64,000 nucleotides of DNA from Patescibacteria group bacterium. GTDB lineage: Bacteria; Patescibacteriota; Patescibacteriia; JAXHNJ01. Positions within the stretch are counted from its first letter, which is position 1. Every line of letters begins with the position of its first letter. Where the stretch lies: contig JAXHNJ010000001.1 in assembly GCA_034520665.1 (NCBI GenBank), positions 130,579 through 194,578 of the forward strand, written 5' to 3'. The notes under the pieces were generated by a model that saw only the letters and a list, made by a program, of their open reading frames with translations, made no database searches and was not told the origin of the DNA. The position numbers and the translations under genes are program-made. Positions 19,615-45,414 of this stretch are shown piece by piece.

Positions 19615-19619
19615 GGAAA

Positions 19620-21613: not shown

Positions 21614-21668
21614 AAGTAATTTTATACTATGGGATTAATTTATTAGCTTATTTTTTATTTTTATATTT

Positions 21669-24372: not shown

Positions 24373-24423
24373 TGGACCTATATCTTCTTATTATTATAAG
24401 TCTCTTTAATTTCTGGTTAGGAA

Positions 24424-24690
24424 TAGCGGAAAATTCAAAAGCAAATTAAAGACAAAATTTCAAAAAACCCTTCATTAAAAGAAGAAATAAGGTTAGCCGA
24501 TATGCGAGTATTGACTTCACCTCCCAAAAAACCCTCTGATAAATATATTGATCTCTCTACTAAAAACATAGCAAAATGGCGGAAAGCACTGCAGTCATTG
24601 GGGTTGGAGAAGAAAGATATTCCTGCCCAGGCCGGAGATATACTCTCACAATTAATTAAAAAATATCATGAGCTTCGAACCATTCCTTAA
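24424..24690 (+). pseudogene. Duplicated 3' fragment (~265 bp) of gene 20228..21613 (copy of 21353..21613); contains stand-alone ORF 24502..24690
   Basis: Near-identical nucleotide sequence. The ORF translates to MRVLTSPPKKPSDKYIDLSTKNIAKWRKALQSLGLEKKDIPAQAGDILSQLIKKYHELRTIP, against ...MRVLTSPPKKPSDKYIDLSTKNITKW...HELKHIP at the C-terminus of the 461-aa protein. Confidence 0.75.
24502..24690 (+). CDS. Stand-alone 62-aa ORF corresponding to the C-terminal module of the cassette-1 Rossmann protein
   Basis: Own ATG, with a possible weak RBS (aagg, about 10 nt upstream). Intact frame despite being a duplicated fragment. It sits between the two cassettes. Confidence 0.4.
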   Translation: MRVLTSPPKKPSDKYIDLSTKNIAKWRKALQSLGLEKKDIPAQAGDILSQLIKKYHELRTIP

Positions 24691-24727
24691 AATTTATTAA
24701 TTTTAATAAGCAATTAATCGAATAATT

Positions 24728-25531: not shown

Positions 25532-27086
25532 TATGATTTTAGATAAAAATAAAATTTATAAAAATTTGTTTTCTCTAAAAGACTGGGGTACTTATTACGG
25601 AAGCGACATAAATCGTATTTCTAAAAGCCTTGTCCAGGCTAATCCCGAAATCTTTGAGGAAGAAAGTAAAAATCGCGCTTTAACATTTTTTCGTCGGGTA
25701 AGCTCTCAGGTTCCAGCCTATAAAGATTTTTTGAAAAAGAATAATATTGATCCTGAAAAAATAAAAACCGCCAGTGATTTAAAGCAAGTTCCATGGATCG
25801 ATAAAGAGAATTATTTAAAGCAATATCCGATGGAATCTCTTTGTTGGCATGGGAAAATGACCGCCCCTATTATTTCGGCTAGTTCTGGTTCTACAGGTAA
25901 TCCATTTTTCTGGCCACGGTCTCCTGAAATAGAAAGAGAAACCACTTTTATCTATGAGCTTTTTTTAAAGGAGATATTTGAGATTAACAAATATAAAACA
26001 CTTCTAATAAATGGTTTTTCACTTGGTATTTACATTGGTGGAACATTCACTCTTAACTGTTCGATGAGGATCTCGCAGAAGGCATATCCATTGACAATAA
26101 TTACTCCGGGAATCAATAAAAATGAGATATTAAATTCTATTAAGAAACTACATCGGTATTTTGATCAGATAATAATAAGTGGCTACCCTCCTTTTATTAG
26201 AGATATTATTGATGATGGTCAAAAAATGGGTATCAACTGGAAAAAAATTAGATTAAAATTTTTTTTCGCCTCGGAATCTTTAAGTGAAGAATTTAGATCT
26301 TATATTTATAACAAAGTGGGTATTAGCGATAAGAGTTACTACTATTCATCAATGAATCTTTATGGTACTGCTGACGCAGCTATTATGGGTCATGAAACTC
26401 CCTTAAGTACATTTGTGAGAAGACTTTTTAGCAATAACAAAGATAAATGTAAAGAATATTTTGGAACAGATTATGTGCCGTCTCTTAATCAATATTATCC
26501 AATGTTTAAATATATAGAAATTGATAATAATGAAATTATTCTTACATCTTTTAACACAGAGATTCCTTTAGTACGTTACAATATTCATGATCGAGGAAAA
26601 GTGTTAACTTATCATAAGATAATTAAGCTCATAGAGTCATTTGGTTACACAGAAAAAAAGGCAGAAAAAATTACCGGAAGATGTTTTTGGCACTTACCTT
26701 ATGTCTACTTATTTGGCAGAAGTGATTTTACAGTAACTGTTTATGGTCTTAATATTTATCCAGAAAATATTAAATTAGCTCTAGAATCAAAAGAATTAAT
26801 TAGTTTAACCACGGGGAAATTTGTGTTAGAAACAGCAAATAGAGCCAGTGATCAGAGTCAATACTTATTAATTCACATAGAAATTTTGAAAGATATTCCA
26901 ATTAATAAAGAATTAGAGAAAAAGTTCCGAGAAATAATTGTTAAATCTTTAAGAAAAGTCAATTTGGAATACAATCATTTATATCAGGCAATTAAGGAAC
27001 GAGCTATTCCTAAAATTGACTTGAGAAAACAAGGAGACAAAACTTATTTCGCGCCGGCAATTAAACAAAAATGGGTAAAAAATTAA
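25518..27086 (+). CDS. Adenylate-forming enzyme, PaaK/CoF390-synthetase-like (paralog of 21669..23225); cassette 2
   Basis: ISASSGSTGNPFFWPR, YGTADAAIMGHETP, VRYNIHDRGKV. Overlaps the upstream MTase gene by 14 nt. Confidence 0.65.
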   Translation: MRQNNMILDKNKIYKNLFSLKDWGTYYGSDINRISKSLVQANPEIFEEESKNRALTFFRRVSSQVPAYKDFLKKNNIDPEKIKTASDLKQVPWIDKENYLKQYPMESLCWHGKMTAPIISASSGSTGNPFFWPRSPEIERETTFIYELFLKEIFEINKYKTLLINGFSLGIYIGGTFTLNCSMRISQKAYPLTIITPGINKNEILNSIKKLHRYFDQIIISGYPPFIRDIIDDGQKMGINWKKIRLKFFFASESLSEEFRSYIYNKVGISDKSYYYSSMNLYGTADAAIMGHETPLSTFVRRLFSNNKDKCKEYFGTDYVPSLNQYYPMFKYIEIDNNEIILTSFNTEIPLVRYNIHDRGKVLTYHKIIKLIESFGYTEKKAEKITGRCFWHLPYVYLFGRSDFTVTVYGLNIYPENIKLALESKELISLTTGKFVLETANRASDQSQYLLIHIEILKDIPINKELEKKFREIIVKSLRKVNLEYNHLYQAIKERAIPKIDLRKQGDKTYFAPAIKQKWVKN

Positions 27087-28153
27087 TCAACAATAAAATA
27101 CAAGATAAATTCAAGGTTTTTAGTTATCAAAAATCTCGTAATATAATTGAAAAAATCAGCAAAATAAAGGGTGTTAAAATAATTGATGAGTTTGATGAGC
27201 AGATAATTGAATTGTATAAATTTTTTAATCCGGGGGTATCTTTTAATCAAGCTCAGTATAATTTATTCAAGAAAAAATATTTTTCTAAAAGATCGTCAAA
27301 AGAGAAGGGAAGATGGATCTGGTATCCATGGAACAAAAGTCTGGTTCACCTTTTGTCGCCGAAGGATTTTCAGAGAATTCGTACTTCAAGAAATAGATAT
27401 CTCATTACTGATCAGGAGCAAGAAGAATATCGAAAAGCATGTGTGGCTATTGCCGGGGTTTCTGTAGGGTCAAACATTGCGATAACACTGCGTTTACAAG
27501 GAGGCGCCCAACATCTCAAACTTTCAGATTTTGATATATTAGAACTTTCAAATACAAATCGGATAACGTTAGGAGTGCCTTATCTTGGAGAGGAGAAAAT
27601 TGATATTGTTAAACAAAAAATATTAGAAATTGATCCATACACAAAGCTATCTTTATTTCCAAAGGGTTTAAATTCAAATAATATAAGACAATTTTGTCAG
27701 GGATCAGACATTGTTTTTGATGAGGTGGACAATTTACAAATTAAAGTACTTTTACGAAAATATGCCCGTAAATTTAAAAAACCGCTAATTATGCTTACTG
27801 ATAATGATGACGGAGTGTTGGTTGATTATTACCCATATCATAAGAAAATAGATGTCCCATTATTTCACGGTTTACCTGATAATAAAGTACTCAATTTGAT
27901 TAATGCTAAAAAACCTCCAACAAAATCAGAAATGGTTAAGCTAAGTTCTCAAGTAGTTGGTAAGCAAAATATTTCTCCGAGAATGATGAAATCTCTTAAA
28001 GCGGTAGGCAAGACACTTGTATCATGGCCTCAATTAGGTACTGCGGCTATTTTTTCCGGTGTTATTGGTGCTTATATGACCCGGATGATTATTAATGGGT
28101 ATGATTTTCGCTTTCGCCGGCGATTGATTCGTTTAAATGATCAACTTATATGA
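27071..28153 (+). CDS. ThiF/MoeB/E1-like protein (paralog of 23209..24372); cassette 2
   Basis: VAIAGVSVGSNIAITLRLQGG...LSDFDILELSNTNRI is a classic ThiF-family motif. The N-terminal W.YPWN.SLVHLL...IRTSRNRYLIT extension is conserved. Overlaps its neighbours by 16 nt and 4 nt. Confidence 0.7.
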   Translation: MGKKLINNKIQDKFKVFSYQKSRNIIEKISKIKGVKIIDEFDEQIIELYKFFNPGVSFNQAQYNLFKKKYFSKRSSKEKGRWIWYPWNKSLVHLLSPKDFQRIRTSRNRYLITDQEQEEYRKACVAIAGVSVGSNIAITLRLQGGAQHLKLSDFDILELSNTNRITLGVPYLGEEKIDIVKQKILEIDPYTKLSLFPKGLNSNNIRQFCQGSDIVFDEVDNLQIKVLLRKYARKFKKPLIMLTDNDDGVLVDYYPYHKKIDVPLFHGLPDNKVLNLINAKKPPTKSEMVKLSSQVVGKQNISPRMMKSLKAVGKTLVSWPQLGTAAIFSGVIGAYMTRMIINGYDFRFRRRLIRLNDQLI

Positions 28154-30420
28154 ATATATTATTCACTATTTTCACAGCAACATTAGGCATTATTATAGGT
28201 TATCTCGTTATTAAACAAAACCCACGAAACGCCATGCATTTGGCATTTATGGTATTTTGTGTTTCTTTAGCATTTTGGGCAGTTGCCAATTATTTTTCAA
28301 TTTCAACTCAAGAAGTTTCAAACATTCTTTTTTGGATGAGAGCTGTAATGATTTTCGCTGTAATTATTTGTATTTCATTTTTTTTATTTATTCATACATT
28401 TCCTAAGTCGAAGATTAATCTTCAAAAGAAATATCTCTTTCCTTTGTTATTAGCTGGAGTTCTAACTTGTATTGTGTCCTTTTCGCCTCTACTTTTTTCT
28501 GAAGTAACATTTGACGAACAAGGAAATAGATCACCAGTAGTTAAACCCGGTATGTTATTATTTCTTATTGTAGCCGTTGGTTCCTTACTTTCAGCATTTA
28601 TTATTCTAATTAAAAAAGTTAAACGTTCCACTGGTATTACTAAGATGCAGCTGCGATTTATTCTTGCTGGTACTTTTATTATGTTTTTTTGCATCCTTTT
28701 ATTTAATTTGGTTTTACCAGTAATATTTAAGATTTCCACTTTTGTTAATGCGGCTCCATTTTTTATATTACCTTTTATTCTAGCAGTTTTTTATGCTATC
28801 ACCCGCCATCGTCTCATGGACATCCGCCTGGTGGTCAAGCGCACTGCCATCTATGCTTCCACCGTTATTTTCCTCCTTCTCCTCGCCCTCGGTCTTTATT
28901 GGCTGGAAATGACTTATTTTAAGGAAATCATTCCTCCGGGTGTTTGGGGGCCAATTGTCCTTTTGCTCGGCTTAATCCTCTTTGAGCCATTAAAGAATTA
29001 CCTAGAAAGAATTGCCAACAAATACTTCTTTGCCAGTATTTACAACTACCAAGCTACTCTGGAAAAACTGGCCCAGGAACTGACTTATTCTATTGATTTA
29101 GACCAAATTATTGATTCTATTGTTAAAACCATCCGGGATACCATGAAACTGGACCGGACTGGTGTTTTATTATTTGACCAAGAAACCCATAATTACCAGG
29201 TGAAAAGTAATATTGGCTTTTCCGTGGCTAACGGTATTTCTCTAGTCAGAAACAACTTTCTTACCAATTACCTTTTAGAAAAAAGAAAACCAGTTATTTA
29301 CCAGGAACTGGAGTCTTTAAAAAGTAATCAGGGTGAAAAGTCGGAAATTGGTAAATTAAAGGCTAATATGAAAAGAATTGAAGCGGCCTTGTGTCTGCCT
29401 TTGATTATTAAAAATAAATTGATCGGTATCATTGTTTTGGGCGAGAAAATATCTAAGGACGCCTACACTAAAGAAGATCTACAGCTTCTTGATTCTCTAA
29501 CCAACCAAGCCTCTATCGCTTTAGAAAACGCCCGGTTGTACCAGCAGGTGCAGGACTTTACCAAAACTCTTCAGCAGAAAGTGGATGAGCAAACCCGGGA
29601 TATTAAGCAAAAGAATGTTGATCTTAAAAAAATGGCCAAAGAAGTAAAAGAGAAAAATGTCCACTTGGAGAAAGTTCTTAAAATTCAGTCGGAGTTTTTG
29701 GATATTTCTTCGCATCAACTCCGGACCCCGGTCTCGGTCATTAAAGGAGTATCTTCAATGCTGGCTCAGGGTGAGATGGAGAAGTTGCCTCCAGAAAAAA
29801 AGAAAGAATTCTACCAAAGTGTTTATGATAAAAGCGTGAAATTGGAGAAAATTATCAATGATATCTTAAGGGCTTCGGAGTTTGACGCGGTTAAATTTAG
29901 TTTAGACGATAAAACAGCTCTAATTTCACCGGAAGAAGTGATTGAGGAAGCGGTTAAAGAAGCAGAGTTGGAAGCGAAACAGAGAAAAATAAATTTAATC
30001 TGGCAAAAACCGGTTTCTCCCTTGCCGAAAATTTATGCGAAAAAAAAGTATTTAGTGGAAGCGATAGGTAATCTTTTGTCGAACGCCCTGAAATATACCC
30101 CTTCTCTTGTCCAAGTTAAGGAAGCCCGGAGTAAAAGAAGAAAAAAAGGCGTAGTTATGGTTGAGGCGGAAAAAGAGAAAGATAATATTCTGATTAAGGT
30201 TTCTGACAACGGTATTGGTATTCCCAAGAAAGAAATAAGTAAGCTTTTTACTAAGTTTGCTCGGGCCGAAAATGCTACGGATATGTACACAGACGGCAGC
30301 GGGCTGGGGCTTTTTATTGTTAAAGAAATTGTAAGTGGCCACCAGGGCCAGGTCTGGCTCGAAAGCAAGTTGGGCAAAGGCACCACTTTTTACATTAGTT
30401 TGCCGATTGCTAAAAAATAA
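28150..30420 (+). CDS. Membrane sensor histidine kinase (N-terminal polytopic sensor domain, GAF-like domain, HisKA, HATPase_c)
   Basis: About 7 N-terminal TM helices. H-box is SSHQLRTPVSV. The ATPase domain has DNGIGIPKKEISKLFTKF and GSGLGLFIVKEIV (N, G1/G2 boxes). The start overlaps the E1-like gene (ATGA). Confidence 0.85.
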   Translation: MNILFTIFTATLGIIIGYLVIKQNPRNAMHLAFMVFCVSLAFWAVANYFSISTQEVSNILFWMRAVMIFAVIICISFFLFIHTFPKSKINLQKKYLFPLLLAGVLTCIVSFSPLLFSEVTFDEQGNRSPVVKPGMLLFLIVAVGSLLSAFIILIKKVKRSTGITKMQLRFILAGTFIMFFCILLFNLVLPVIFKISTFVNAAPFFILPFILAVFYAITRHRLMDIRLVVKRTAIYASTVIFLLLLALGLYWLEMTYFKEIIPPGVWGPIVLLLGLILFEPLKNYLERIANKYFFASIYNYQATLEKLAQELTYSIDLDQIIDSIVKTIRDTMKLDRTGVLLFDQETHNYQVKSNIGFSVANGISLVRNNFLTNYLLEKRKPVIYQELESLKSNQGEKSEIGKLKANMKRIEAALCLPLIIKNKLIGIIVLGEKISKDAYTKEDLQLLDSLTNQASIALENARLYQQVQDFTKTLQQKVDEQTRDIKQKNVDLKKMAKEVKEKNVHLEKVLKIQSEFLDISSHQLRTPVSVIKGVSSMLAQGEMEKLPPEKKKEFYQSVYDKSVKLEKIINDILRASEFDAVKFSLDDKTALISPEEVIEEAVKEAELEAKQRKINLIWQKPVSPLPKIYAKKKYLVEAIGNLLSNALKYTPSLVQVKEARSKRRKKGVVMVEAEKEKDNILIKVSDNGIGIPKKEISKLFTKFARAENATDMYTDGSGLGLFIVKEIVSGHQGQVWLESKLGKGTTFYISLPIAKK

Positions 30421-34197: not shown

Positions 34198-34773
34198 ATG
34201 GATAAAAACCAACAAATGAAACTAATTAAAGAAGAAGTTATAGCCTGTAAAAGATGTGAACTTAATAAAACTCGTACTTTGCCGGTAATCGGTCAGGGTT
34301 CTCATGAAGCAAAAATTATGTTTGTCGGCGAAGCGCCTGGAGCGCAGGAAAACAAAACCGGCCGGCCTTTTTGCGGGGCGGCCGGCAAAGTGCTTGATCA
34401 GCTTTTAGAGTCAATCGGAGCGGAGCGAGAGGAAATTTACATCGGTAATATTTTAAAGTGCCGGCCGCCCTCAAATCGTAACCCCGAGCTGGAGGAAATA
34501 GAAAGCTGCACCCCTTATCTTGACCGGCAAATTGAAATTATTCAGCCTCGGGCCATAGCGGCTTTGGGTAATTTCTCAGCCCGGTATTTGATGGAAAAAT
34601 ATGGTTTAGAGGATTTGATCCAGGGTATTAGCAAAATGAAAGGGCAGGTTTTTAGCCCTTCGGGCCAGGACTTTAAGTTAATCCCTCTTTTTCATCCAGC
34701 GGTGGCTACTTATAATCGCCATAAATTTGATGATTTGGCCCAGGATTTTAAAATTTTAAAAAAATATTTATGA
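34198..34773 (+). CDS. Uracil-DNA glycosylase, family 4 (Fe-S type)
   Basis: CKRCEL...VGEAPGAQENKTGRPFCGAAGKVLDQLL...ILKCRPP...HPA is the family-4 UDG motif set. Confidence 0.85.
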   Translation: MDKNQQMKLIKEEVIACKRCELNKTRTLPVIGQGSHEAKIMFVGEAPGAQENKTGRPFCGAAGKVLDQLLESIGAEREEIYIGNILKCRPPSNRNPELEEIESCTPYLDRQIEIIQPRAIAALGNFSARYLMEKYGLEDLIQGISKMKGQVFSPSGQDFKLIPLFHPAVATYNRHKFDDLAQDFKILKKYL

Positions 34774-35393
34774 ATAAAAATAAATTAAACTACACCATAC
34801 TAGGAGTAATTATTTTAGGGATTTTATTTTTATTTTTTTATTTTTACTGGCCGATTGTTAATGAAAGATATGTTTCTCCGCCGGCTGTTTTAAATATTCC
34901 TAATACCAATACGGTTATAATTGAACCAGAAGAAAAAATTTCACCTTATGATAATTTAAAAAAAGTGATTATACCCAAGCTAGGCCAGGAGGCGGTTTTA
35001 ATCTTGCCGGAAAAAGATTTTATCAGTGACAAAAACGATTTTGTGGAAAATAATCTTGATAATGGAGTAGTGATGTATCCCAATAGTATAGAGGATTTAA
35101 AAAAAGAAAACTTAGCTCTTTTCGGTCATTCTTCTTCCATTCACCCCCGAGCCGAATACGCTTTGGTTTTTGTTAATTTGGATAAATTGGCTCTGGATGA
35201 TGAAATTATTTTAATGGATAAAAATGACGAACAGATAAAATATAAGGTTAATCAGGAACCAAAAATTATTGAATCCGATGCTTCAGAAATTGTAGGAAAA
35301 AATCAAGGAGAGGGGATAATTACCTTGGTCACCTGCTGGCCGCCCGGGACAACGCAGAAAAGGATTTATGTGACGGGTCAATTAGCGGAATAA
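34770..35393 (+). CDS. Sortase (transpeptidase) with an N-terminal membrane anchor
   Basis: Catalytic triad context: ...LALFGHSS (His), ...GIITLVTCWPP (TLxTC Cys), ...QKRIYVTG (Arg). N-terminal TM helix ILGVIILGILFLFFYFYW. Confidence 0.75.
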   Translation: MNKNKLNYTILGVIILGILFLFFYFYWPIVNERYVSPPAVLNIPNTNTVIIEPEEKISPYDNLKKVIIPKLGQEAVLILPEKDFISDKNDFVENNLDNGVVMYPNSIEDLKKENLALFGHSSSIHPRAEYALVFVNLDKLALDDEIILMDKNDEQIKYKVNQEPKIIESDASEIVGKNQGEGIITLVTCWPPGTTQKRIYVTGQLAE

Positions 35394-35518
35394 TATAGTA
35401 TGGTTTTAGGCTTAGCGGCGGGTAAGGTTTTGGTGGTTAGGTTTAGAATAGAAAACCATTGGAAACTACCTAGTATAAAACAAACTGCCAAGGAAGCCCT
35501 TAAAATTACCCGAGAAGC

Positions 35519-35571
35519 GCGGATCTCCTGATCCGCGTGGCTTTTCCGGTTGGATCAGGAGATCCAACCTT
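35519..35571. repeat. Pair of inverted palindromic hairpins (gcggatctcctgatccgc / ggttggatcaggagatccaacc); possible terminator for the sortase gene
   Basis: The 14-bp arms ggatctcctgatcc and ggatcaggagatcc are reverse complements, separated by gcgtggcttttccggtt. Confidence 0.4.
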
Positions 35572-35590
35572 TTCGAAAAAAAATTAAAAA

Positions 35591-35627
35591 ATATCCCTGC
35601 GTAGGTGCGGGTCGCGACCCGCACCTA
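35591..35627. repeat. GC-rich REP-like palindrome (tatccctgcGTAGGTGCGGGTCGCGACCCGCACCTAC), inverted copy of the element at 42757..42798
   Basis: Near-perfect 12-bp stem. The same unit recurs at 42757 and at 43183 (the latter inside a RAYT gene). Confidence 0.75.
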
Positions 35628-35641
35628 CCTAAGATAAAAAC

Positions 35642-35800
35642 AAAACCATAAACTCTGGCAAAGCCATAACTGGATAGAAAATATTTTTTCTATAAAATTT
35701 TTAAAACAAAAACTTAATTACATCCACAATAACCCTGTCCGGGCCAAACTGGTTAAAAACCCCGAAGATTATAAATATTCAGGTTATTATAATTATTATT
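35642..35800 (+). pseudogene. Truncated 3' fragment of an IS200/RAYT-like transposase gene (homologous to 45222..45380 of gene 44812..45414)
   Basis: ctggcaaagccataactggatagaaaatattttttctataaaatttttaaaacaaaaacttaattacatccacaataaccctgtccgggccaaactggtt... matches the 3' end of the intact gene almost base for base. The start is missing. Confidence 0.7.
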
Positions 35801-35869
35801 TAAATGATTCTTTAATAAAGACAGATTAATAATTTTAGAGAATTTAGCTTTTTGAAAATTATTTTAGTA

Positions 35870-36310
35870 TTTATAATAAAAAGGGTCGGCCAAAGCCCTC
35901 GCTTTGGCTTTATTTTAGAGGCGAGCGAGGGCTCACCTCTACCCGAATTATTCTAACCCCTGGAGATAAATCTCCAGCTACGCGGAATGAGATGTTTGTT
36001 TACGCCTAGGTAAAAGATTGCGAGTTTCACGGATATCGAATAATAAATTTTTTTTCTCACGCGTAGGCGGAGATTTATCTCCGCGTTTAAATAAAACCGC
36101 CTAAGCGGGAATCAGAGATTCCCGCCTTGCTTTCTCACAATTAAATTTGTATTAATTATTTTAATAGTAGCTGTTATTCGCGACTGACAGCTACGAGTTA
36201 TTATTGATAGCTAACCTAGGCTAAATCTAATCATAAGGATCTCTCCACTGCGGTCGAGATGGTACGAGGGTTTATTAATCGCGAGGAAATCCTTATGGAA
36301 GATTTCAGTC
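35870..36310. repeat. Cluster of GC-rich palindromic/inverted repeats (REP- and MITE-like) in the 1.1-kb ORF-free interval
   Basis: Includes gggtcggccaaagccctcgctttggc..., cccctggagataaatctccag...cgcgtaggcggagatttatctccgcg, gcctaagcgggaatcagagattcccgcc, tcgcgactgacagctac (also at 11607-11630), and cataaggat...atccttatgg (also around 38360-38480). Confidence 0.6.
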
Positions 36311-36428
36311 TTCTAATAAGCCACATCAGCTTAATAATAATTAAATTAAAAAACTATCAAATAGGACATTTCTAAATAATCCAAAGTAGGACATTTCTAT
36401 TTCAACCTTTACATGAATAACTTAAGTA

Positions 36429-36457
36429 TTGACAAAAAAGCAAATTTAGAGTAATTT
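36429..36457 (+). promoter_or_regulatory. Conserved promoter module 1 (TTGACA-aaaaagcAAATTTAGAGTAA-TTT); shared with 38531, 40544 and others
   Basis: -35 TTGACA, 17-nt spacer containing the conserved caaatttagag, -10 TAATTT. 60 nt upstream of ORF 36521. Confidence 0.5.
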
Positions 36458-36520
36458 AAGGGGGTTTATAAGATAAGTGATTAGTAAATTAATATTAATT
36501 TAATTATTAAAAAAATATAT

Positions 36521-37618
36521 ATGAGAGAAAGAGAAAAAAATATACCGGAAGATGAGATAAATAAAAAAGGTGAGGAAATTACAGAGAAAAATGAAAATTT
36601 AGAAAAAAAAGAAATAGAAGTTGATTCTAGTCAAGAAGAAAGAGAAGAAGATGAAAAAATCGAAAAAATTAGGGAAGAAATTGATAAAATAAATTATGAT
36701 CATGAAAATGAAACCCCCCAAGATATTAAAGACAAGCCCCCAGTTCAAGAATCTATTAAGCCAGAAGGCTTAGCCCAGAAATTACAAAAAGATCGCTTAA
36801 ATGTATTGGTTGAGAACGCTCGCCATATTCTAGGGGAAAAAGCCAGTAATCAAGAGGTTAAAAATTTATCAAGAGAAACATTTAGAGAATATATTAAAGC
36901 TATATTTTTTTCAGCTAAACCTAGATCAAAAGAAAAATTAATGAAACAAACTGAAATATCCGGCAAAGAAGAATTAGGCAGGGCTTTAGAAGAAAATAAT
37001 AAAGCTATTGTGGTAACTTCGCATATGGCCTATTTTCCTACCGCTATGAAAATGATTCCTGAATTAATGCCGGAAAAAACCAGAGGTAATACCTTGGTAG
37101 AGAAAAATCCACTTTGGCCTTTAATAAAAGTTGGCAAGAAAATTGGTGAACTTTTTAAAGGTGATGACCCTAAGGCTAAAAAATTTGATATGCTGGTTAA
37201 AGATTCTAAAAACCCCCGCACTCTTTTGTCAATAATAAAGCGTTTAAAGAAAGCTAGCCCTGAACAAAAAGAAATGCTTTTTATGGCTGCTGATAGAGGA
37301 GATCTTTCTCCTGATCGCCGTAAAACAAAAGTTAATTTTTTTGATACTAAAGTAAATTTTCCTACCGGTCCAGCTACTATATCTGAACATACAGACGCTC
37401 CAATATTACCGACTTATGTAGTTAGGGAAGGGGATAAATTTAAAATTAAAATTGGAGAAACAATTAAAAGAAATACTGATTTATCTTCAGAAGAGGCTAA
37501 TAATGAGATTATGCAAAAGGTAGCGGATTTTTTTGAACAAGGCATCAGAGAACATCCTGAACAATGGCCTATGTATCGCCATGATTATTGGCCTGGGCAA
37601 AAAGATTATAAAGATTAA
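36521..37618 (+). CDS. Lysophospholipid/lipid-A-type acyltransferase family protein (LpxL/HtrB-like LABLAT fold) with a charged N-terminal extension
   Basis: ...AIVVTSHMAYFPTAM... (H-containing acyltransferase motif region) and the C-terminal HPEQWPMYRHDYW resemble the LpxL-family signature (P.QW.W.H.RW). Moderate confidence. Confidence 0.45.
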   Translation: MREREKNIPEDEINKKGEEITEKNENLEKKEIEVDSSQEEREEDEKIEKIREEIDKINYDHENETPQDIKDKPPVQESIKPEGLAQKLQKDRLNVLVENARHILGEKASNQEVKNLSRETFREYIKAIFFSAKPRSKEKLMKQTEISGKEELGRALEENNKAIVVTSHMAYFPTAMKMIPELMPEKTRGNTLVEKNPLWPLIKVGKKIGELFKGDDPKAKKFDMLVKDSKNPRTLLSIIKRLKKASPEQKEMLFMAADRGDLSPDRRKTKVNFFDTKVNFPTGPATISEHTDAPILPTYVVREGDKFKIKIGETIKRNTDLSSEEANNEIMQKVADFFEQGIREHPEQWPMYRHDYWPGQKDYKD

Positions 37619-37644
37619 TAAATAATAAAATATTAATAACTTCA

Positions 37645-37900
37645 TTCCATTTCGACCCCCTCGACTCTCTCACTTTTTTGTTTGCTCGGGACAAGCCCCT
37701 CATCGGTTCGTCTTCGCTCACCGCAGGCATAGTTCGGGACAAGTCGACGCCCCCCCCCTTACCATTTCGACTAAGGTCCCGCAGGGACCGCATGGAGAAA
37801 TCCTGTTAAATTAACCATAAGGATCTCTCCGCTTCGTCGCGCTGAGCGCGACTGCGGTCGAGATGGTTTAATATTTTATACTTTATGGATTAATCTAAAA
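37645..37900. repeat. Repeat-rich intergenic region (ccatttcgac units; ataaggatctctcc...ggtcgagatgg element)
   Basis: Units recur at 38229, 38253, 38283 and 38362-38480. Confidence 0.55.
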
Positions 37901-37907
37901 ATAATTT

Positions 37908-38207
37908 ATGAAAAATAGAGTCTATTGTATATATATAATGACCAATAAGAATAATACTACCTTCTATGTTGGCTTTTCCAGCACCCTTAAAGAAAGAGTT
38001 TATACGCATAAAAAGAAATTAGTCGATGGATTTACTAAAAGATATAATTTAACTAAACTGGTTTATTATGAATGTGATGATGATTATGAAGCCGTTTTAA
38101 ACAGGGAAAAGCAAATAAAGAAATGGCGGCGTGAAAAGAAAATAGCTTTAATAAAAAATAAAAACCCTGAATTTAAAGACTTATATGATGAAATTGATAT
38201 GGAGTAA
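37908..38207 (+). CDS. GIY-YIG nuclease family small protein
   Basis: VYCIYIMTNKNNTTFYVGFSSTLKERVYTHKK...YNLTKLVYYE...REKQIKKWRREKKIALI is canonical GIY-YIG (PF01541-like). Confidence 0.8.
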   Translation: MKNRVYCIYIMTNKNNTTFYVGFSSTLKERVYTHKKKLVDGFTKRYNLTKLVYYECDDDYEAVLNREKQIKKWRREKKIALIKNKNPEFKDLYDEIDME

Positions 38208-38219
38208 ATAAGATCTCTT

Positions 38220-38520
38220 GTCCCATTCACCATTTCGACTGCTTTTTACCCCATTACCATTTCGACCGCCTTTTACCTCCTTACCATTTCGACTCCCTCG
38301 ACTCTCTCACTTTGTTCGCTCGCTCGGGACAGGCTGAGTGGAGAAAACCTTCTAAAGTAGTCATAAGGATTTCTCTGTTCGTCCTTCCCCTTCGATTATA
38401 CTCAGGGTCAGTCCTCAGTCGAGACGGTATGAGGGTTTTTATGGGGCGAGGGTTTATTAATCGCGAGGAAATCCTTATGGAAGATTCTATTACTTTTTTA
38501 TGTCATGTCAGGCCGTGGAT
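38220..38520. repeat. Tandem short repeats (ttaccatttcgac x3) plus a MITE-like element with terminal inverted repeat cataaggat...atccttatgg
   Basis: gagggtttattaatcgcgaggaaatccttatggaagat is shared with 36268-36305. ORF 38312..38527 lies wholly inside this repeat and is rejected. Confidence 0.55.
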
Positions 38521-38530
38521 TATTTAAGTA

Positions 38531-38616
38531 TTAACAAAAAAACAAATTTAGAGTAACTTAGGGTGTTATTAACTGGGTTAATAACTTGATTGACAAGATC
38601 ATCTAGTTTTTGTAAG
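38531..38616 (+). promoter_or_regulatory. Two tandem promoter modules (TTAACA...TAACTT and TTGACA...TAAGAT) upstream of surface-protein gene 38721
   Basis: The first module has the conserved aacaaatttagagtaactt core. The same two-module layout is repeated at 40544-40631. Confidence 0.5.
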
Positions 38617-38720
38617 ATAAGCTAATACTCACAAAAATAAATAAAAAAAGCTAATATTAGCAAAAACAACAACTTTATATATCTAAAGGGAGGGATTTAA
38701 AAATTAAGTTAAAAAAAATT

Positions 38721-40421
38721 ATGAGAAAAATTAATAGAAAAAATGGCTTTACCAAAGCCTTAAATCTACTTACTTTAGGGGCCCTAGTGGTCTATGCTTC
38801 CTTTTTGGGAGTGTTTTTTATGCCTCAGGAAGTTGATTCCTCAGCCAGTTATAACAGTCTTTTAGTTTTGGAAAACAAGTATAATGAGGATAGTGTAAAT
38901 CAGTGGGAATTTATTGATGATGATGGTATTAAGGGATACCTGCTTTATAATTCCTATGGGCCAGAGTTTGAGTATAGATTTGAGGCTAACGGTTTAAATG
39001 ATCAGGACTATGTTCTTATTTATTATGCCGATCCTTATCCGGGCAGTCCGGCTCTTATGATAGATGAAGGCACTGCTTCTGGTGGAAATTTGGTATTACA
39101 AGGAAGTAATAACACCGGAGATTTACCATATGATAGTGATCCCAATAAATATAATCTTGTTCCAGATAACTATGTACACCGAACTGGAGCTAAAATTTGG
39201 TTAATTCCAGCTTCTGATTATGATGCTGATAATGAAAAAACAACTATTAACTGGCATCCACATTCAGAGACAGACCTTTTATTTGAAACCGATTTAATTC
39301 ATTACACTAAAACAACAGATTTGAACAAAGAATTGATTTTAGAAAACAAAGATAGCAACTGGGATATTGTTCCCGATACTACTCAAGCCAGACTGTACTA
39401 TAATGATTATGCTGAAAAGTTTAATTATAAACTAAAGGCAAGTGGTTTAGAAATTAATCAGACTTACGCTTTGATTTATTATGCAGATCAACAGGAAAGA
39501 TTTGATAATTGGGGAGGGGATAATCCCGGTGCATTAATAACAGAAGTAATTGCAAATGAAAAAGGTAATATTACTGAAACAGGACATAAAGATTTGGGAA
39601 TGAATCTTCCAGAGGATTCAGACTGGAATAATAGTGAAGACGCTGATTATTGTAATTATCATAATGGTTATGATGATTATGACCATTGTAATGGAGCAAA
39701 GATTTGGTTAGTGCCTTCAGATGATTATAATGAGACAGACAACCAACTTACTTCTTGGAATCCGGATAATTACTTATTTGAAACAGATTTGATAACTTAT
39801 ACTAAAGCTACAGAAGATTGTCCTAATTTAAAAGAACTTTTTGAAGAGGCATATCAATCTGAAGAAGGCGATGATAGTGGGAAATATGAAGCAGTTTTAG
39901 ATTTTGATGATGATGGTAAAATTAGTTTAAGTGATTTTGGAGTTTTAGGTAATAATTTTGATAATTCTGAATGGTGTGGGGATATATTAAAAGAGTTAGA
40001 GCCAGAAAAGGGATTATCAGATGATTCAAATTTATCACCAATTTCAGAAGTTTCTAGTACTGAAGAATTAGAAAAAAATAATGATGTAAATGATAAAATA
40101 GATAGTAGTCATTCAGTTGAAATAAAACCAGTTATAAAAGAAAAGTTAGCCTCTAAAGAAAACACTCTTACTATTACCGGAAATCCTACTAATAATCTTC
40201 AAGAAGAAGAAAAAACAGCTGATCAAGTAGTTACTAGTAATGATAATTCAGTCACAAAAAATGAATCAACTGATAAAACAGTTAGTCAGACGGATGGTGA
40301 AGTGCAAGGAGCTACTGATAATAAAATTGATAATAAAGTGATTGAAACTGAAAATGAATTGCCCCAAGCTGGTACTAATTTTTTGACTTGGCTGGTTGAT
40401 TTGTTTTCATTTGGTATTTAA
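38721..40421 (+). CDS. Large secreted/surface protein with an N-terminal signal anchor, dockerin-like Ca-binding repeat, Asp/Asn-rich repeats and a C-terminal LPQAG-hydrophobic sorting-signal-like tail
   Basis: N-terminus MRKINRKNGFTKALNLLTLGALVVYASFLGVFF. DFDDDGKISLSDFGVLGNNF is a dockerin type I-like motif. C-terminus ELPQAGTNFLTWLVDLFSFGI. Confidence 0.55.
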   Translation: MRKINRKNGFTKALNLLTLGALVVYASFLGVFFMPQEVDSSASYNSLLVLENKYNEDSVNQWEFIDDDGIKGYLLYNSYGPEFEYRFEANGLNDQDYVLIYYADPYPGSPALMIDEGTASGGNLVLQGSNNTGDLPYDSDPNKYNLVPDNYVHRTGAKIWLIPASDYDADNEKTTINWHPHSETDLLFETDLIHYTKTTDLNKELILENKDSNWDIVPDTTQARLYYNDYAEKFNYKLKASGLEINQTYALIYYADQQERFDNWGGDNPGALITEVIANEKGNITETGHKDLGMNLPEDSDWNNSEDADYCNYHNGYDDYDHCNGAKIWLVPSDDYNETDNQLTSWNPDNYLFETDLITYTKATEDCPNLKELFEEAYQSEEGDDSGKYEAVLDFDDDGKISLSDFGVLGNNFDNSEWCGDILKELEPEKGLSDDSNLSPISEVSSTEELEKNNDVNDKIDSSHSVEIKPVIKEKLASKENTLTITGNPTNNLQEEEKTADQVVTSNDNSVTKNESTDKTVSQTDGEVQGATDNKIDNKVIETENELPQAGTNFLTWLVDLFSFGI

Positions 40422-40451
40422 GCATTGTAAAATTAAAGACTCAAATATAAA

Positions 40452-40479
40452 AGAGGGCTCAAAAATGAGCTCTCTTTTT
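40452..40479 (+). terminator. Putative intrinsic terminator after gene 38721..40421
   Basis: agagggctca-aaaa-tgagctctct, then ttttg. Confidence 0.45.
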
Positions 40480-40543
40480 GTCGGAATAAACCTTCTCTCT
40501 TGGCTAAAAGAGGGCTTGACCCGCCCAAATTTATTAAAATTTA

Positions 40544-40631
40544 GGCCAGGGTTGACAAAAACTCAAATTTAGAGTAACTTGAGGTGTTATTAACTTGGTT
40601 AATAACTTGATTGACAAATCTTAGCATTTTT
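40544..40631 (+). promoter_or_regulatory. Two tandem promoter modules (TTGACA-aaaactcAAATTTAGAGTAACTT and TTGACA...TAAGAT) upstream of surface-protein gene 40719
   Basis: Near-identical to the modules at 38531-38616. Confidence 0.5.
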
Positions 40632-40718
40632 TATAAGATAAATAAATGTTATAAAAACTAATATTAGCTAAAAAATAAGAATTTTATATAAATTAGTAAT
40701 TATTAATTAAAAAAAATT

Positions 40719-42683
40719 ATGAAAAAAATTAATAGAAAAAAAGGCTTGACTAAAGCCATAAATGTGCTAATCTTGGCCAGTTTAATTATCTACACCTCTT
40801 TTTTAGGGGTATTTTTTGTGCCTCGGGAAGCTGATTCACAAGTAGGCTGTTTCCCTGACTTTAATAATGATGGAGAAGTAAGTTTATCTGATTTTGGTAC
40901 ATTTGCTAATACTTATGGAAAATCTGATGGCGATGATGATTATAATTATTTAGCAGATATTAATGGTGATAAAACGGTTAGTAAAGCTGATTTCGATTAT
41001 TTTAAAAGATATTATGGCCATAAATTTATCTGCAACCAAACAACTTTGCCGGAAAATTACGTAGATATTGGTATGTGTGGAGAAGGGGAATATAATATTA
41101 ATAAAGATTATGTGAATATTGGAGATCCAGCTAGTGAAAGCGGACATGAATTGTCTGATGAATGGAGTGACGCTAATCATAGTGGTAATTATGGTGGTAG
41201 AGATGATGGGACTTTTAGAACAGTTGTTTCATCTGATAATTGTTCTGGTGGTGGTTTGCATGAGGCTAGTTTTACTTTAAATACCGGAGATGAAAAAGCC
41301 AATTCATTATTTATCAGACATCTTGATGGTCAAAGTAATCGGGATGGTTTTGAGGTTTTTATTAATGATCAATCAGTGGGTAGTCATACTGACTTAGGAG
41401 ATAGTATTGAAGAATGGCAAACTACTAAATTTGATATATCTAAATACGATTTTTCCGAAGAATTAAATGTTCAAATTAAATTAATTGATGATATTTGGAA
41501 TAGATGTTCCACCTATGGCCAATTAGCTATTTCTTGGGCGGCTTTGGATACCTGTTCAATTCCTCCGGCAGACACTGACCAAGATACGATCTTTGATGTT
41601 AGTGATAATTGTCCTAATGAATGGAACCAAGATCAGAGCGACTCTGATCAGGATGGTATAGGTGATGCTTGTGATTTAACACCTTTTGGTTATTTAACCA
41701 AAGATATGGTTAATTTAAAAAAAACAGTCAATAAACCAAAAGCCGAACTGGGCGATGCTTTAAATTACGAAGTTGATTTTAGCTATAATACGGATGAAAA
41801 AATTGAAGTTGGTGTCATCCTTGATTATCTGCCAGAAGGTTTTATAATTGATAAAGATTCAATTTCTGATGAAGGCTTATTTTTACCAAAAGATGAAACT
41901 CCTGAGGATCAGGATGTAATTGTTTGGAAATTAGAAGGAATTGAAGAAAATCATACTTTTACGGTTTCTGGTCAGGTTGATCCGGAAATTAATCTTAATG
42001 AAGGAACCTGCACCACTTTAACTAATAAAGTTGAATTATTAGAGATACCCGGACTTGAAAGTTATAATGATTTAGTAATCGGTCCGGGAGGAGAAGATCA
42101 AGGAGAGCCTATATTATTAGGCAGTGATACTGATGAAACTGAGGTTTGTGTGACTGTGCCTGAATCCGAAAAAAAAGAGCCGGTGATTGAAGAAGAATCT
42201 GCTCCGGTGCTAACTATTGATAAATCAGTGGAGAAGTCTTCAGTAGTGGCTGGTGATTCAGTAAATTATATTGTTAATATTAAAAATACTGGTTCAGACA
42301 CGGCCTTTAATGTCCGTTTAGCTGATACTTTACCGGATGGCTTTACTTATGATGATGGTTCTGACGGTTCCTGGTTTTTTGAAAATCTTGAAGCTGGTGA
42401 AGAAATGAACCATATTTATTCAGTCACGGTTAATAGTGATTTAACGGCTGGTACTTACACTAACACAGCCCAGGTTTCAGCTGATAACCACGAGGCTATT
42501 ACTGATACGGCTGATTTAACGGTTACCGAGCCGGTTTCAGAAGGAGTAGTGTTGGGAGCGGCCACCGAGGCTGGTGATGTAGCCGGAGCCGAAGATGAAT
42601 TACCCCAGGCTGGTTCTAGTATTCTTTTCTGGCTGGCTAGTTTATTGCCGTTTTTGGGTATTGTTCGTCTGAGAAAAATATAA
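40719..42683 (+). CDS. Large secreted/surface protein: N-terminal signal anchor, dockerin-like repeats, thrombospondin type 3-like Ca-binding repeats, DUF11-type repeat domain, C-terminal LPQAG plus hydrophobic plus basic tail (sortase-signal-like)
   Basis: DFNNDGEVSLSDFGTF and DINGDKTVSKADFDYF (dockerin-like). DTDQDTIFDVSDNCPNEWNQDQSDSDQDGIGDACD (TSP3-like). ...VNYIVNIKNTGSDTAFNVRLADTLPDGFTY... (DUF11-like). C-terminus ELPQAGSSILFWLASLLPFLGIVRLRKI. Confidence 0.6.
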   Translation: MKKINRKKGLTKAINVLILASLIIYTSFLGVFFVPREADSQVGCFPDFNNDGEVSLSDFGTFANTYGKSDGDDDYNYLADINGDKTVSKADFDYFKRYYGHKFICNQTTLPENYVDIGMCGEGEYNINKDYVNIGDPASESGHELSDEWSDANHSGNYGGRDDGTFRTVVSSDNCSGGGLHEASFTLNTGDEKANSLFIRHLDGQSNRDGFEVFINDQSVGSHTDLGDSIEEWQTTKFDISKYDFSEELNVQIKLIDDIWNRCSTYGQLAISWAALDTCSIPPADTDQDTIFDVSDNCPNEWNQDQSDSDQDGIGDACDLTPFGYLTKDMVNLKKTVNKPKAELGDALNYEVDFSYNTDEKIEVGVILDYLPEGFIIDKDSISDEGLFLPKDETPEDQDVIVWKLEGIEENHTFTVSGQVDPEINLNEGTCTTLTNKVELLEIPGLESYNDLVIGPGGEDQGEPILLGSDTDETEVCVTVPESEKKEPVIEEESAPVLTIDKSVEKSSVVAGDSVNYIVNIKNTGSDTAFNVRLADTLPDGFTYDDGSDGSWFFENLEAGEEMNHIYSVTVNSDLTAGTYTNTAQVSADNHEAITDTADLTVTEPVSEGVVLGAATEAGDVAGAEDELPQAGSSILFWLASLLPFLGIVRLRKI

Positions 42684-42756: not shown

Positions 42757-42960
42757 GTAGGTGCGGGTCGCGACCCGCACCTACGCAGGGATATTTATTA
42801 ATTTTTGTATCGCGACCCGCACCTACGGGATTGATTTTGTAATTTAAAAAATCATCGCGATCCCCGGCGGCTCACGAGCCGCCGCTACGGGGATTAATTA
42901 TATTATTTAAAAATTATCGTAACCCGCCGGTGTCAGTCGTGACCGATGCCAACAGTTTTA
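42757..42960. repeat. Array of GC-rich REP-like palindromes (74-bp unit gtaggtgcgggtcgcgacccgcacctacgcagggatatttattaatttttgtatcgcgacccgcacctacggg plus two further hairpins)
   Basis: The unit is repeated at 43183..43257 and partly at 35591..35627. Additional hairpins are ccccggcggctcacgagccgccg and cggtgtcagtcgtgaccg. Confidence 0.7.
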
Positions 42961-42964
42961 TAAA

Positions 42965-43519
42965 TTAATAATTTTTAGGATTATTGCGATCTAAATTCCA
43001 TTTAGAAGGATTAAGAATAATATATTCTCTAACATTATCTAGACTTTTTTCATTGTCAATAATTCGGTCATAAAAAGATCTTTGCCATCTAAATTCAGGA
43101 AATCCATTTTGATGGATTAATTTTGAAGAAGTTGTTTTAAAGGCGCCGATAATTTCTGTTATTGGTTTAATTTTTATTCCCCGTAGATGCGGGTCGCGAC
43201 CCGCATCTACGCAGGGATATTTATTAATTTTTGTATCGCGACCCGTACCTACGCAGGAAGAATCAATAATAATAATTCCATGAAAATGATTGGGCATAAT
43301 AATGTATTTATCCAGGCTTATATAAGAATATTGTTTTTCTAGCCATTGCCATTGTCTTTTTACTATTTTGCCGTATTTATTTAAAGACATCTTATTTTCT
43401 AATATTTTACCAAAGATATTTGTTTTTTGTTTCGTGCAAATTGTAATAAAATAATATCCCTCACTAGAATAATCATAATGAGGTAATCTCATAGATTTAT
43501 ATTTTTTATATGGTGACAT
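42965..43519 (-). CDS. REP-associated tyrosine transposase (RAYT, IS200/Y1-transposase-like) carrying an in-frame 75-bp REP insertion
   Basis: HuH motif IMPNHFHGIII and C-terminal FRWQRSFYDRIIDNEKSLDNVREYIILNP (Y1_Tnp signature). Nucleotides 43183..43257 are a near copy of the 74-bp REP unit at 42757, translated in frame as ...GTGRDTKINKYPCVDAGRDPHLRG.... Confidence 0.7.
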   Translation of the reverse strand: MSPYKKYKSMRLPHYDYSSEGYYFITICTKQKTNIFGKILENKMSLNKYGKIVKRQWQWLEKQYSYISLDKYIIMPNHFHGIIIIDSSCVGTGRDTKINKYPCVDAGRDPHLRGIKIKPITEIIGAFKTTSSKLIHQNGFPEFRWQRSFYDRIIDNEKSLDNVREYIILNPSKWNLDRNNPKNY

Positions 43520-43675
43520 TTACAAAAAACCTTTATTGTAAGCCACCAAAGAAATTTGAATGGTCGGGGTACTGGGATTTATCCGACAAAGCCTGCCTGT
43601 GGCAGACAAGGCGGATCCCCTAAAGGGGGAAACTCTTAATTTCTTATTTTTAAAAAAAATGATACTAAAATAATT

Positions 43676-43715
43676 TGGTCGGGGTAGCCTCCCTTCGGGA
43701 GACGACCTCATCGTC
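43676..43715 (-). repeat. Partial duplicate of the 3' end of tRNA-Pro (acceptor 3' strand plus the 5' side of the T-arm region, with the T-loop replaced by a ctcccgaagggag hairpin)
   Basis: tggtcggggtagcc and cgacctcatcgtc are identical to 43734-43747 and 43761-43773 of the tRNA gene. Located 18 bp from the tRNA 3' end. Confidence 0.6.
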
Positions 43716-43733: not shown

Positions 43734-43809
43734 TGGTCGGGGTAGCCAGACTTGAACTGGCGACCTCATCGTCCCGAACGATGCGCGCTACCAACTGCGC
43801 CATACCCCG
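43734..43809 (-). tRNA. tRNA-Pro (anticodon CGG), CCA encoded
   Basis: Minus-strand sequence CGGGGTA-TG-GCGC-AGTTGGTA-GCGC-G-CATCG-TTCGGGA-CGATG-AGGTC-GCCAG-TTCAAGT-CTGGC-TACCCCG-A-CCA. Same architecture and identity elements (C1:G72, A73) as E. coli tRNA-Pro(CGG). Confidence 0.85.
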
Positions 43810-43963: not shown

Positions 43964-44668
43964 ATGAAAAATAAAATTCAGGAAAATAAAATTCCCCAGC
44001 ATATTGGCATTATTATGGACGGTAATCGGCGCTGGGCCCGATCAAGAGGCCTGCCTACTTTACAGGGTCATAAAAAGGGCTATGATAAAGTGTTAAAAGT
44101 AGGAGACTGGTGTTTGGAAGAGGGGGTTAAGATTTTAAGTGTTTATGCTTTTTCTACGGAAAATTGGAACCGCTCTAAAAAAGAAGTCGGTTATTTAATG
44201 AAACTCTTGAAAAGAGGACTAGAAACAGACATTAGAAAATTACATAAGAAAAATATTAAGGTTCAGGTTTTAGGCCGGATTAAGGAGCTATCCCAGGATT
44301 TACAAAAAGCGATTAAAGATACTATGGAATTAACCAAGAATAATACCAAGGGAGTTTTGAATATCTGTATTAATTATGGCGGCCGGGCCGAGATTATTGA
44401 TGCTATTAAAGAAATGATTAAAGATAAGATTTCTCCTATTCAGGTCACAAAAAAATTAGTGGCTAATTATCTTTATACTAAAGCCCAGCCAGATCCAGAT
44501 TTAATTATTCGCACCTCAGGTGAGCAGCGTTTATCTAATTTTCTGACCTGGCAGGCCAGTTATTCTGAGCTTTATTTTATAAAAAAACACTGGCCGGCTT
44601 TTAATAGAAAAGATTTGCAAAAAGCCATTAAAGAATATTCTAATCGTCAGAGAAGGTTTGGCGGGTAG
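43964..44668 (+). CDS. uppS: Undecaprenyl diphosphate synthase (cis-prenyltransferase)
   Basis: HIGIIMDGNRRWA...GHKKGYDKV...LSVYAFSTENWNRSKKEV...RTSGEQRLSNFLTWQ are UppS signatures. Confidence 0.9.
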   Translation: MKNKIQENKIPQHIGIIMDGNRRWARSRGLPTLQGHKKGYDKVLKVGDWCLEEGVKILSVYAFSTENWNRSKKEVGYLMKLLKRGLETDIRKLHKKNIKVQVLGRIKELSQDLQKAIKDTMELTKNNTKGVLNICINYGGRAEIIDAIKEMIKDKISPIQVTKKLVANYLYTKAQPDPDLIIRTSGEQRLSNFLTWQASYSELYFIKKHWPAFNRKDLQKAIKEYSNRQRRFGG

Positions 44669-44811: not shown

Positions 44812-45414
44812 ATGTCCCTTAAAACTATAAATATTGAAAATCACGCTTACTTTGTCACCAGTAAGGTTTATTATAATCTAGAAATATTTGTTTATAATAA
44901 ATTTTGCCAAATGCTAATTAATAATTTTAAATTTTACAGAAAAGCCAAAAATTTTAAGCTATTAGGCTATGTTATTATGCCTAATCATTTACACACAATT
45001 ATTTGGCCACAGGGTAAAAATTCTATATCGGACATTATGCGCGATTTTAAAGAATTTACCGCTAAACAGATTATTAAATCTCTAAATCACCGAGAAGCTC
45101 TGGCCCCTAGGCCTGAGCTTAGTAAATATATAGCCAGAACCGGTCTGGGGACCGGTTCTTCTCCTAGTAAAATATTGAAATGTTTTAAAAAGGGAGCCAA
45201 AAATATTAATAATCAAAATTACAAAGTCTGGCAAAGCCGCAACTGGATAGAAAATATTTTTTCTATAAAATTTTTAAAACAAAAACTTAATTACATCCAC
45301 AATAACCCTGTTCGGGCCAAACTGGTTAAAAAACCTGAAGATTATAAATATTCAAGTTTTAAAAATTATTACCGGGATGAGAATAAGTTAATTAAGATTG
45401 ATAAAATATTATAA
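44812..45414 (+). CDS. REP-associated tyrosine transposase (RAYT/IS200-like) with an internal GC-rich hairpin-containing segment
   Basis: HuH motif IMPNHLHTII. C-terminal WQSRNWIENIFSIKFLKQKLNYIHNNPVRAKLV. The internal agaaccggtctggggaccggttct and gctctggcccctaggcctgagc hairpins lie within the coding sequence. Confidence 0.7.
   Translation: MSLKTINIENHAYFVTSKVYYNLEIFVYNKFCQMLINNFKFYRKAKNFKLLGYVIMPNHLHTIIWPQGKNSISDIMRDFKEFTAKQIIKSLNHREALAPRPELSKYIARTGLGTGSSPSKILKCFKKGAKNINNQNYKVWQSRNWIENIFSIKFLKQKLNYIHNNPVRAKLVKKPEDYKYSSFKNYYRDENKLIKIDKIL

Follow-up and report, generated by a model that had tools for sequence, protein, structure and literature searches.

The question raised by the locus described here is which residues mark a protein for the sortase of a Patescibacteria lineage. 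In a 64,000-nt stretch of the genome of a Patescibacteria group bacterium (contig JAXHNJ010000001.1, positions 130,579 to 194,578 of the forward strand; hereafter the window) a sortase gene lies upstream of the genes for two candidate substrates, A and B, both of which end in ELPQAG followed by a hydrophobic stretch. Position four of this motif is Ala, where the LPXTG pentapeptide has Thr. An earlier note on the DNA proposed that these tails are the sorting signals of the neighbouring enzyme, and the analysis of related genomes makes it probable that the locus encodes classical sortase surface display in which, throughout a clade, the cleavage residue of the motif has gone from Thr to Ala. Sortase substrates and motifs are largely uncharacterised in the candidate phyla radiation (CPR), more than half of the genomes of which contain sortases (PMC6744442).

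The open reading frames (ORFs) of the sortase, A and B had been placed exactly in the earlier note. These genes and their relevant parts are, with all coordinates being those of the window:

34770-35393 (+): sortase, 207 aa, with a Pfam Sortase domain, the catalytic triad, a sortase fold predicted by AlphaFold2 (AF2) and an N-terminal membrane helix (residues 8-35)
35127-35129 (+): sortase catalytic residue His120
35334-35336 (+): sortase catalytic residue Cys189, in TLVTCWPPGTT
35361-35363 (+): sortase catalytic residue Arg198
38721-40421 (+): candidate substrate A, 566 aa, with a leader, two ~160-aa repeats, a dockerin-like loop, a low-complexity linker and an ELPQAG tail
38721-38846 (+): leader (putative signal peptide) of A, with a K/R-rich start and a ~22-residue hydrophobic stretch ending GVFFMPQEVDS
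40359-40373 (+): LPQAG motif of A
40374-40418 (+): C-terminal hydrophobic segment of A (TNFLTWLVDLFSFGI), without a basic tail
40719-42683 (+): candidate substrate B, 654 aa, with a leader, a dockerin-like module, an uncharacterised domain, a TSP3-like repeat, two DUF11 domains and an ELPQAG tail
40719-40844 (+): leader (putative signal peptide) of B
42600-42614 (+): LPQAG motif of B
42615-42680 (+): hydrophobic segment and basic tail of B (SSILFWLASLLPFLGIV-RLRKI)

The sortase and its candidate substrates

The product of 34770-35393 is a genuine sortase, identical to NCBI MDZ7798152.1 from a CPR metagenome-assembled genome. Residues 68-205 are covered by Pfam Sortase (PF04203) at 62.6 bits against a cut-off of 26.6, and the His, TLVTC Cys and Arg motifs named in the earlier note are borne out by an alignment of 14 homologs in which H120, C189 and R198 are invariant and the signature reads TLVTCWPPGTTxKR; the triad is also kept in 24 sortases from related loci. 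The AF2 model, built on the homolog alignment, has a predicted local distance difference test score (pLDDT) of 86 and a predicted template modelling score (pTM) of 0.82, and in it the N-terminal helix (residues 8-35) leads into a beta-barrel. When compared with the PDB by Foldseek the model gave 121 matches at E<=0.001, the best 50 of the 121 all being sortases; the top match was the class C enzyme SrtC1 (4g1j, E 7e-11), with classes A, D and E nearly as close, in agreement with the sequence search of the PDB, where a class C sortase was again best (8t28, E 2.3e-7).

None of the NCBIfam sortase class models (A-F, GN) comes near its cut-off, the best being class C (43.5 against 160), followed by class D (31.9 against 165), class E (31.9 against 160) and class GN (24.5 against 158). 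The enzyme has the catalytic Cys, His and Arg though no class model is reached, and sequence, fold and class-model scores allowed no assignment to a curated class. The chain stops at residue 207, nine residues past Arg198, with its last strand at 197-206, and it consequently lacks the C-terminal membrane anchor that is a trait of class C. There is no second sortase in the window.

At 566 and 654 aa the two candidate substrates are less than the "giant" proteins they had been called, and they are not paralogs along their length, because BLASTP detects similarity between them in three places only: the leader, one dockerin-like loop and ~60 aa at the C-terminal end. What they do share is as described in the earlier note: a leader of the form M[RK]KINRK.G.TKA.N.L.L..L..Y.SFLGVFF, 62% identical over 42 aa, whose secretion-signal anatomy was judged by inspection from the K/R-rich start and ~22 hydrophobic residues, and ELPQAG with a hydrophobic stretch at the other end, with basic RLRKI at the end of B only. 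As far as their sequences tell, A and B are different bodies with the same targeting ends. Their tails are the only two C-terminal LPxxG-plus-hydrophobic tails in the window, the stretch after the motif being 15 residues long in A and ~17 in B before RLRKI.

The mixture of dockerin, TSP3 and DUF11 repeats once ascribed to both bodies holds for B, for which Pfam gives 75 bits to DUF11 (two domains), 23.4 to Dockerin_1 against a cut-off of 22.9, and 23.4 to TSP_3, below its cut-off of 25. It does not hold for A, which has no match in Pfam or the PDB, whose two internal repeats of ~160 aa (D11, D14) have no recognised fold, and whose single-sequence AF2 model is unusable (pLDDT 40). The central domain of B is kin to repeats of uncharacterised proteins, some of which carry sorting tails of the type IX secretion system (T9SS), and B has an ortholog in the related genome L003 that is 58% identical over its full length. 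Ca-dependent adhesion or host attachment by B is plausible from this domain content, and surface proteins of the A and B type are candidates for host-cell attachment.

The tail motif in related genomes

Loci related to that of the window were fetched around sortases 53-100% identical to its own, which gave six genomes including the window (the others being L003, L085, L001, L084 and L086). Every complete leader-bearing protein in these genomes, nine of nine, ends in [E/T/S]LPxAG[S/T] and a hydrophobic segment, where x is Q, R, A or K:

window A: ELPQAGT
window B: ELPQAGS
L003 protein: ELPQAGS
L085 protein: ELPRAGS
L001 protein: TLPAAGS
L084a: SLPKAGS
L084b: ELPKAGS
L086a: TLPQAGS
L086b: TLPKAGT

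The proposal that LPQAG is the cognate motif of the lineage's sortase is partly supported: it fits in that the sortase-adjacent leader proteins of six genomes carry the variant, and needs amending in that what is conserved is LPxAG[S/T], the third residue of which varies. The leader is conserved on all nine proteins and all nine motifs sit 15-38 residues from a C-terminus. In ~145 kb of DNA from the lineage, whose non-overlapping ORFs amount to 41,982 residues, LPxAG was seen nine times against 0.52 expected and LPxTG was seen not once against 0.49 expected. The substrates, one or two per locus, lie 0.2-5.3 kb downstream of the sortase, and the linkage of motif and sortase is found in all six genomes with enough flanking sequence (the L004 contig stops 1.5 kb past the sortase, and those of P0013, P0010 and P0003 are truncated or without substrates). 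The Leu, Pro, Ala and Gly of the motif are kept while their codons vary, Ala being encoded by GCT, GCC, GCA and GCG, and this turnover is a sign that selection acts on the residues themselves, over and above recent common descent. Furthermore, the bodies of window A and L086b are unrelated and the motif is still present. Established here are the sortase domain with its triad and predicted fold, the anatomy of leader and tail, the conserved neighbourhood, and the clade-wide L-P-x-A-G.

Wider searches added little to this set. A profile of the nine leaders found nothing at E<=10 among 5.8 billion proteins, for which the short hydrophobic query is the probable cause, and an exhaustive search of 1.84 billion representatives with the last DUF11 domain and tail of B, which was swamped by multi-repeat DUF11 giants, returned LPxAG only in the window's own fragment and in L084b. 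Scanning metagenomes with an alignment of the close-lineage sortases gave at least two further close relatives, including a copy of L086.

The direction of the change is suggested by a sister clade. When the sortase alignment was run against GTDB species genomes it recovered 80 loci, almost all with a CPR or Microgenomates label, and 16 of these have a sortase that is 27-35% identical to that of the window with the signature TLMTCWPPGTT. Fifteen of the 16 lie just downstream of a giant protein at whose C-terminus VLGAxTxLP[A/S/E]TG[A] leads into a membrane segment and then a basic tail, and in L017 a 257-aa protein with an equivalent tail lies just 3' of the sortase. With the curated LPXTG-anchor model TIGR01167, one sister-clade LPATG tail scores 22.6, above the cut-off of 15.9. 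As the sister clade keeps LPxTG, it would seem that the clade of the window has changed residue four of the motif from Thr to Ala in every substrate seen.

There are 21 alignment columns that split the sortases of the LPxAG clade from those of the LPxTG clade, some of them next to the His motif and one being a residue of the Cys motif (TLVTC against TLMTC). Pinning the Thr to Ala change on particular residues of the enzyme was tried and rejected, since at ~30% identity 21 differing columns are too many for any one to be assigned to it. A separate feature of the sister clade is a conserved protein of ~320-340 aa that usually stands between the giant LPxTG protein and the sortase (L006, L007, L020, L031, L034, L043, L044, L051 and L080, at ~8.8-9.9 kb of each locus) and ends in a membrane segment and basic tail with no clear LPxTG, some copies having IPPTG- or xATG-like strings.

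The tripartite tails of A and B are best read as sortase sorting signals, the layout being that which the earlier note had likened to them. In such a classical display system the conserved, lineage-specific leader would direct A and B to Sec export and the C-terminal hydrophobic segment would then hold the protein in the membrane, with the basic tail as an additional hold in B. Cys189 of the single-pass membrane sortase, together with His120 and Arg198, would attack LPxAG between Ala and Gly, and the resulting acyl-enzyme would be resolved by the amine of a peptidoglycan precursor, which would leave the protein covalently linked to the wall. We infer the cleavage, the position of the cut, the wall acceptor and the pairing of this sortase with these tails.

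Several observations weigh against sortase display. Alignment of the DNA of A with that of B and L003 shows that A is without 3 + 12 nt encoding the Arg/Lys tail, the 12-nt deletion being the reason for its lack of a basic tail, and as such a tail is required for efficient sorting in model organisms, sorting of A may be poor, or the protein may be released. The nine tails are not independent samples, since seven share a single homologous DUF11-plus-tail module (50-70% identity over ~160 aa). TIGR01167 gives the LPQAG tails no match at E<=10, and the lineage sample amounts to ~145 kb only, with other sortases or LPxTG proteins possible elsewhere.

The shared module and the blindness of TIGR01167 to LPxAG tails would also suit plain C-terminal membrane anchors that stay uncleaved, LPxAG then being a hinge or simply inherited along with DUF11, and a precedent for such anchors may be seen in the ~330-aa neighbours of the sister-clade sortases, with their membrane segment and basic tail and no clear LPxTG. 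It would seem unlikely, however, that a plain anchor should have the motif on two unrelated bodies with synonymous turnover of its codons, in the very position that LPxTG occupies in sister-clade proteins passing TIGR01167, and in linkage with a sortase gene in six of six genomes. A different enzyme, be it a second sortase elsewhere or an unrelated sorting protease, might instead process the tails, given that several sortases with distinct motifs are present in some Gram-positive bacteria and that, of a contig at least 455 kb long, 64 kb was searched. We give this little weight, as adjacency is conserved while sortase identity drops from 100% to 53%, and no further sortase is present in the window or annotated in the related loci fetched. 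Finally, the closest matches of the sortase in sequence and fold are to class C (8t28, 4g1j and the NCBIfam class C score of 43.5 bits), as would be expected of a class C-like pilin polymerase that joins A and B head to tail as pilus subunits. That is very improbable: the class C score is far under its cut-off of 160 with classes A, D and E matching nearly equally, the enzyme has no C-terminal membrane anchor, and neither A nor B matches a pilin-type Pfam family. Sortase display with Ala as the cleavage residue therefore continues to be the reading we favour.

Neighbouring genes, repeats and mobile elements

The start of the sortase gene is overlapped by 4 nt by a uracil-DNA glycosylase (UDG) gene directly upstream. 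Between the sortase and A there is an ORF-free gap of 1.1 kb, an LPLAT-family acyltransferase gene (36521-37618) and a GIY-YIG gene of 99 aa (37908-38207), and 3' of the substrates is the gene for undecaprenyl-diphosphate synthase (UppS; 43964-44668). The order UDG (or 2-thiouracil desulfurase), sortase, one or more leader/LPxAG proteins and UppS is common to all six genomes. Decayed substrate genes were sought in the 1.1-kb gaps and none were found.

A repeated block with a promoter-like site (TTGACA-17-TAAGAT) stands upstream of each of the two substrate genes, and each gene is followed by a terminator-like hairpin:

38516-38618 (+): repeated block upstream of A (repeats D3, D6), promoter-like TTGACA-17-TAAGAT at 38590-38618
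40537-40639 (+): copy of the block before B (repeats D3, D6), promoter-like site at 40611-40639

The block with its promoter-like site also precedes the LPLAT gene (36414-36461 corresponding to 38516-38596 and 40537-40617, and 36259-36329 to 38441-38511), and this occurrence before all three genes hints at duplication of the promoter or at co-regulation.

Three copies of a 28-nt perfect palindrome (GTAGGTGCGGGTCGCGACCCGCACCTAC) are present, at 35601-35628, 42757-42784 and 43183-43210. One copy is inside an IS200-like tyrosine-transposase ORF (42965-43519, minus strand), and a second such ORF (44812-45414, plus strand) is found 1.3 kb away, so that palindrome and transposase together look like a repetitive extragenic palindromic (REP) element with its associated transposase. 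The ORF-free gap 3' of the sortase holds, at 35579-35798, a palindrome copy and a 161-nt transposase gene fragment matching the 3' end (45211-45371) of the ORF at 44812-45414 with 91% identity. Inverted arms of 75 nt (35579-35653 and 43158-43232) enclose 7.5 kb that include the acyltransferase, GIY-YIG and both substrate genes. The GIY-YIG gene is itself flanked by short direct repeats (37637-37679 and 38274-38316), with a 27-nt tandem repeat in three copies at 38215-38295, and may be a mobile or recurrent insert, because L003 too has a GIY-YIG gene, placed between sortase and substrate, and in L085 one occurs ~3 kb upstream of the sortase. Beside the transposase ORF there is a tRNA-Pro(CGG) gene (43734-43809, minus strand) with an adjoining 41-nt partial duplicate (43675-43715, 78% identity).

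Duplications are also found further upstream in the window. About 300 + 79 nt of a 7TM-GAF histidine kinase gene (28150-30420) are duplicated 9.3 kb upstream at 81-85% identity (19609-20102 against 28917-29407), and the duplicate is probably a gene fragment. The region 20228-28153 is a duplicated module with two ThiF-family (E1-like) genes (23209-24372 and 27071-28153), each after a protein of ~517 aa without a Pfam match, and it also holds a methyltransferase and a 272-nt repeat (21350 and 24427, 96% identity).

Some related loci have features of their own. A very large RHS/YD-repeat protein is encoded directly 3' of the sortase in L001 (11339-17023) and L150 (3125-6352); the L150 copy has a GVFF-type leader and the L001 copy has no LPxAG tail. 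In L002 (12409-14613), where the sortase is 41% identical to that of the window, it is immediately preceded by an O-antigen-ligase-like protein (Wzy_C with TPR repeats), and ~1.8 kb downstream of it are FemAB-family and Mur-ligase genes, families that act in the synthesis of the peptidoglycan cross-bridge and stem peptide.

Comparison with known systems

The LPXAG motif is not new, since it is on record as an infrequent variant of LPXTG in both staphylococci and streptococci. It is found in 2 of 21 sortase substrates of Staphylococcus aureus (PMC3436756) and in two proteins of Streptococcus uberis (PMC2657157), SasF (LPKAG) has been reported to be wall-associated (PMC3398289), and LPXAG proteins are treated as sortase substrates in Firmicutes (PMC3436756, PMC2657157, PMC3398289). 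The motif that the earlier note called non-canonical is therefore so in having Ala at position four, and already documented as a variant in both of these species. Exclusive use of LPxAG by a whole clade appears undescribed, and text searches of the literature returned no paper in which LPQAG is described as a sorting signal, nor any on a sortase motif in CPR.

As the mechanism is otherwise standard the gain is incremental, although current annotation overlooks proteins such as A and B: NCBI labels them "hypothetical protein" and "NEW3 domain-containing protein" respectively, and TIGR01167 does not match them. A rule that combines the leader with an LPxAG tail would recover the displayed surface proteome of the clade. 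A stronger proposal, possible yet for the present doubtful, is that the sortase of the clade has been re-specified so that Ala takes the place of the near-universal Thr at the acyl-donor position, with a natural preference for LPxAG, discrimination against LPxTG and a leader that marks substrates in a manner comparable to YSIRK-type leaders. Were the enzyme to prefer Ala it would represent a new specificity class and a potential orthogonal tool for protein ligation, and would be a natural case of altered fourth-position specificity, which is otherwise known mainly from directed evolution (PMC8248031).

The systems of S. aureus SrtA (with SasF, LPKAG, and SasD) and of S. uberis resemble that of the window in their sortase, N-terminal signal peptide, tripartite tail and Ala at position four of the motif. 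They differ in that for SrtA LPXAG is a minority beside its main motif LPXTG, whereas in the clade of the window all substrate tails seen are LPxAG and none is LPxTG; moreover the sortase of the window, unlike SrtA, fits no curated class. Class E sortases and LAXTG set the precedent of a whole sortase lineage with a one-residue variant of LPXTG as its cognate motif. There, residue two is changed, from Pro to Ala, and here residue four, from Thr to Ala, and the class E model scores the window sortase at only 31.9 against 160. The engineered S. aureus enzyme eSrtA(4S), which recognises LPXSG (PMC8248031), shows that a sortase can be given a different preference at the fourth position; it was evolved in the laboratory and prefers Ser, whereas the pattern in the clade of the window is natural and has Ala, to which the specificity of the enzyme may correspond.

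The closest comparison is with the sister-clade CPR sortases, which are homologous to that of the window (27-35% identity), have the signature TCWPPGTTxKR in common with it and likewise adjoin large surface proteins with long conserved leaders. Even the context of the tail is alike, VLGAxTxLP[A/S]TGA in the sister clade corresponding to VLGA(A/E)TE...LPxAG in that of the window. The two clades differ in gene order, which is substrate, ~330-aa tail-anchored protein and sortase in the sister clade, whereas the substrates are downstream of the sortase in the clade of the window, and they differ at the cleavage position, where the sister clade has Thr and passes TIGR01167 and the clade of the window has Ala and does not match it.

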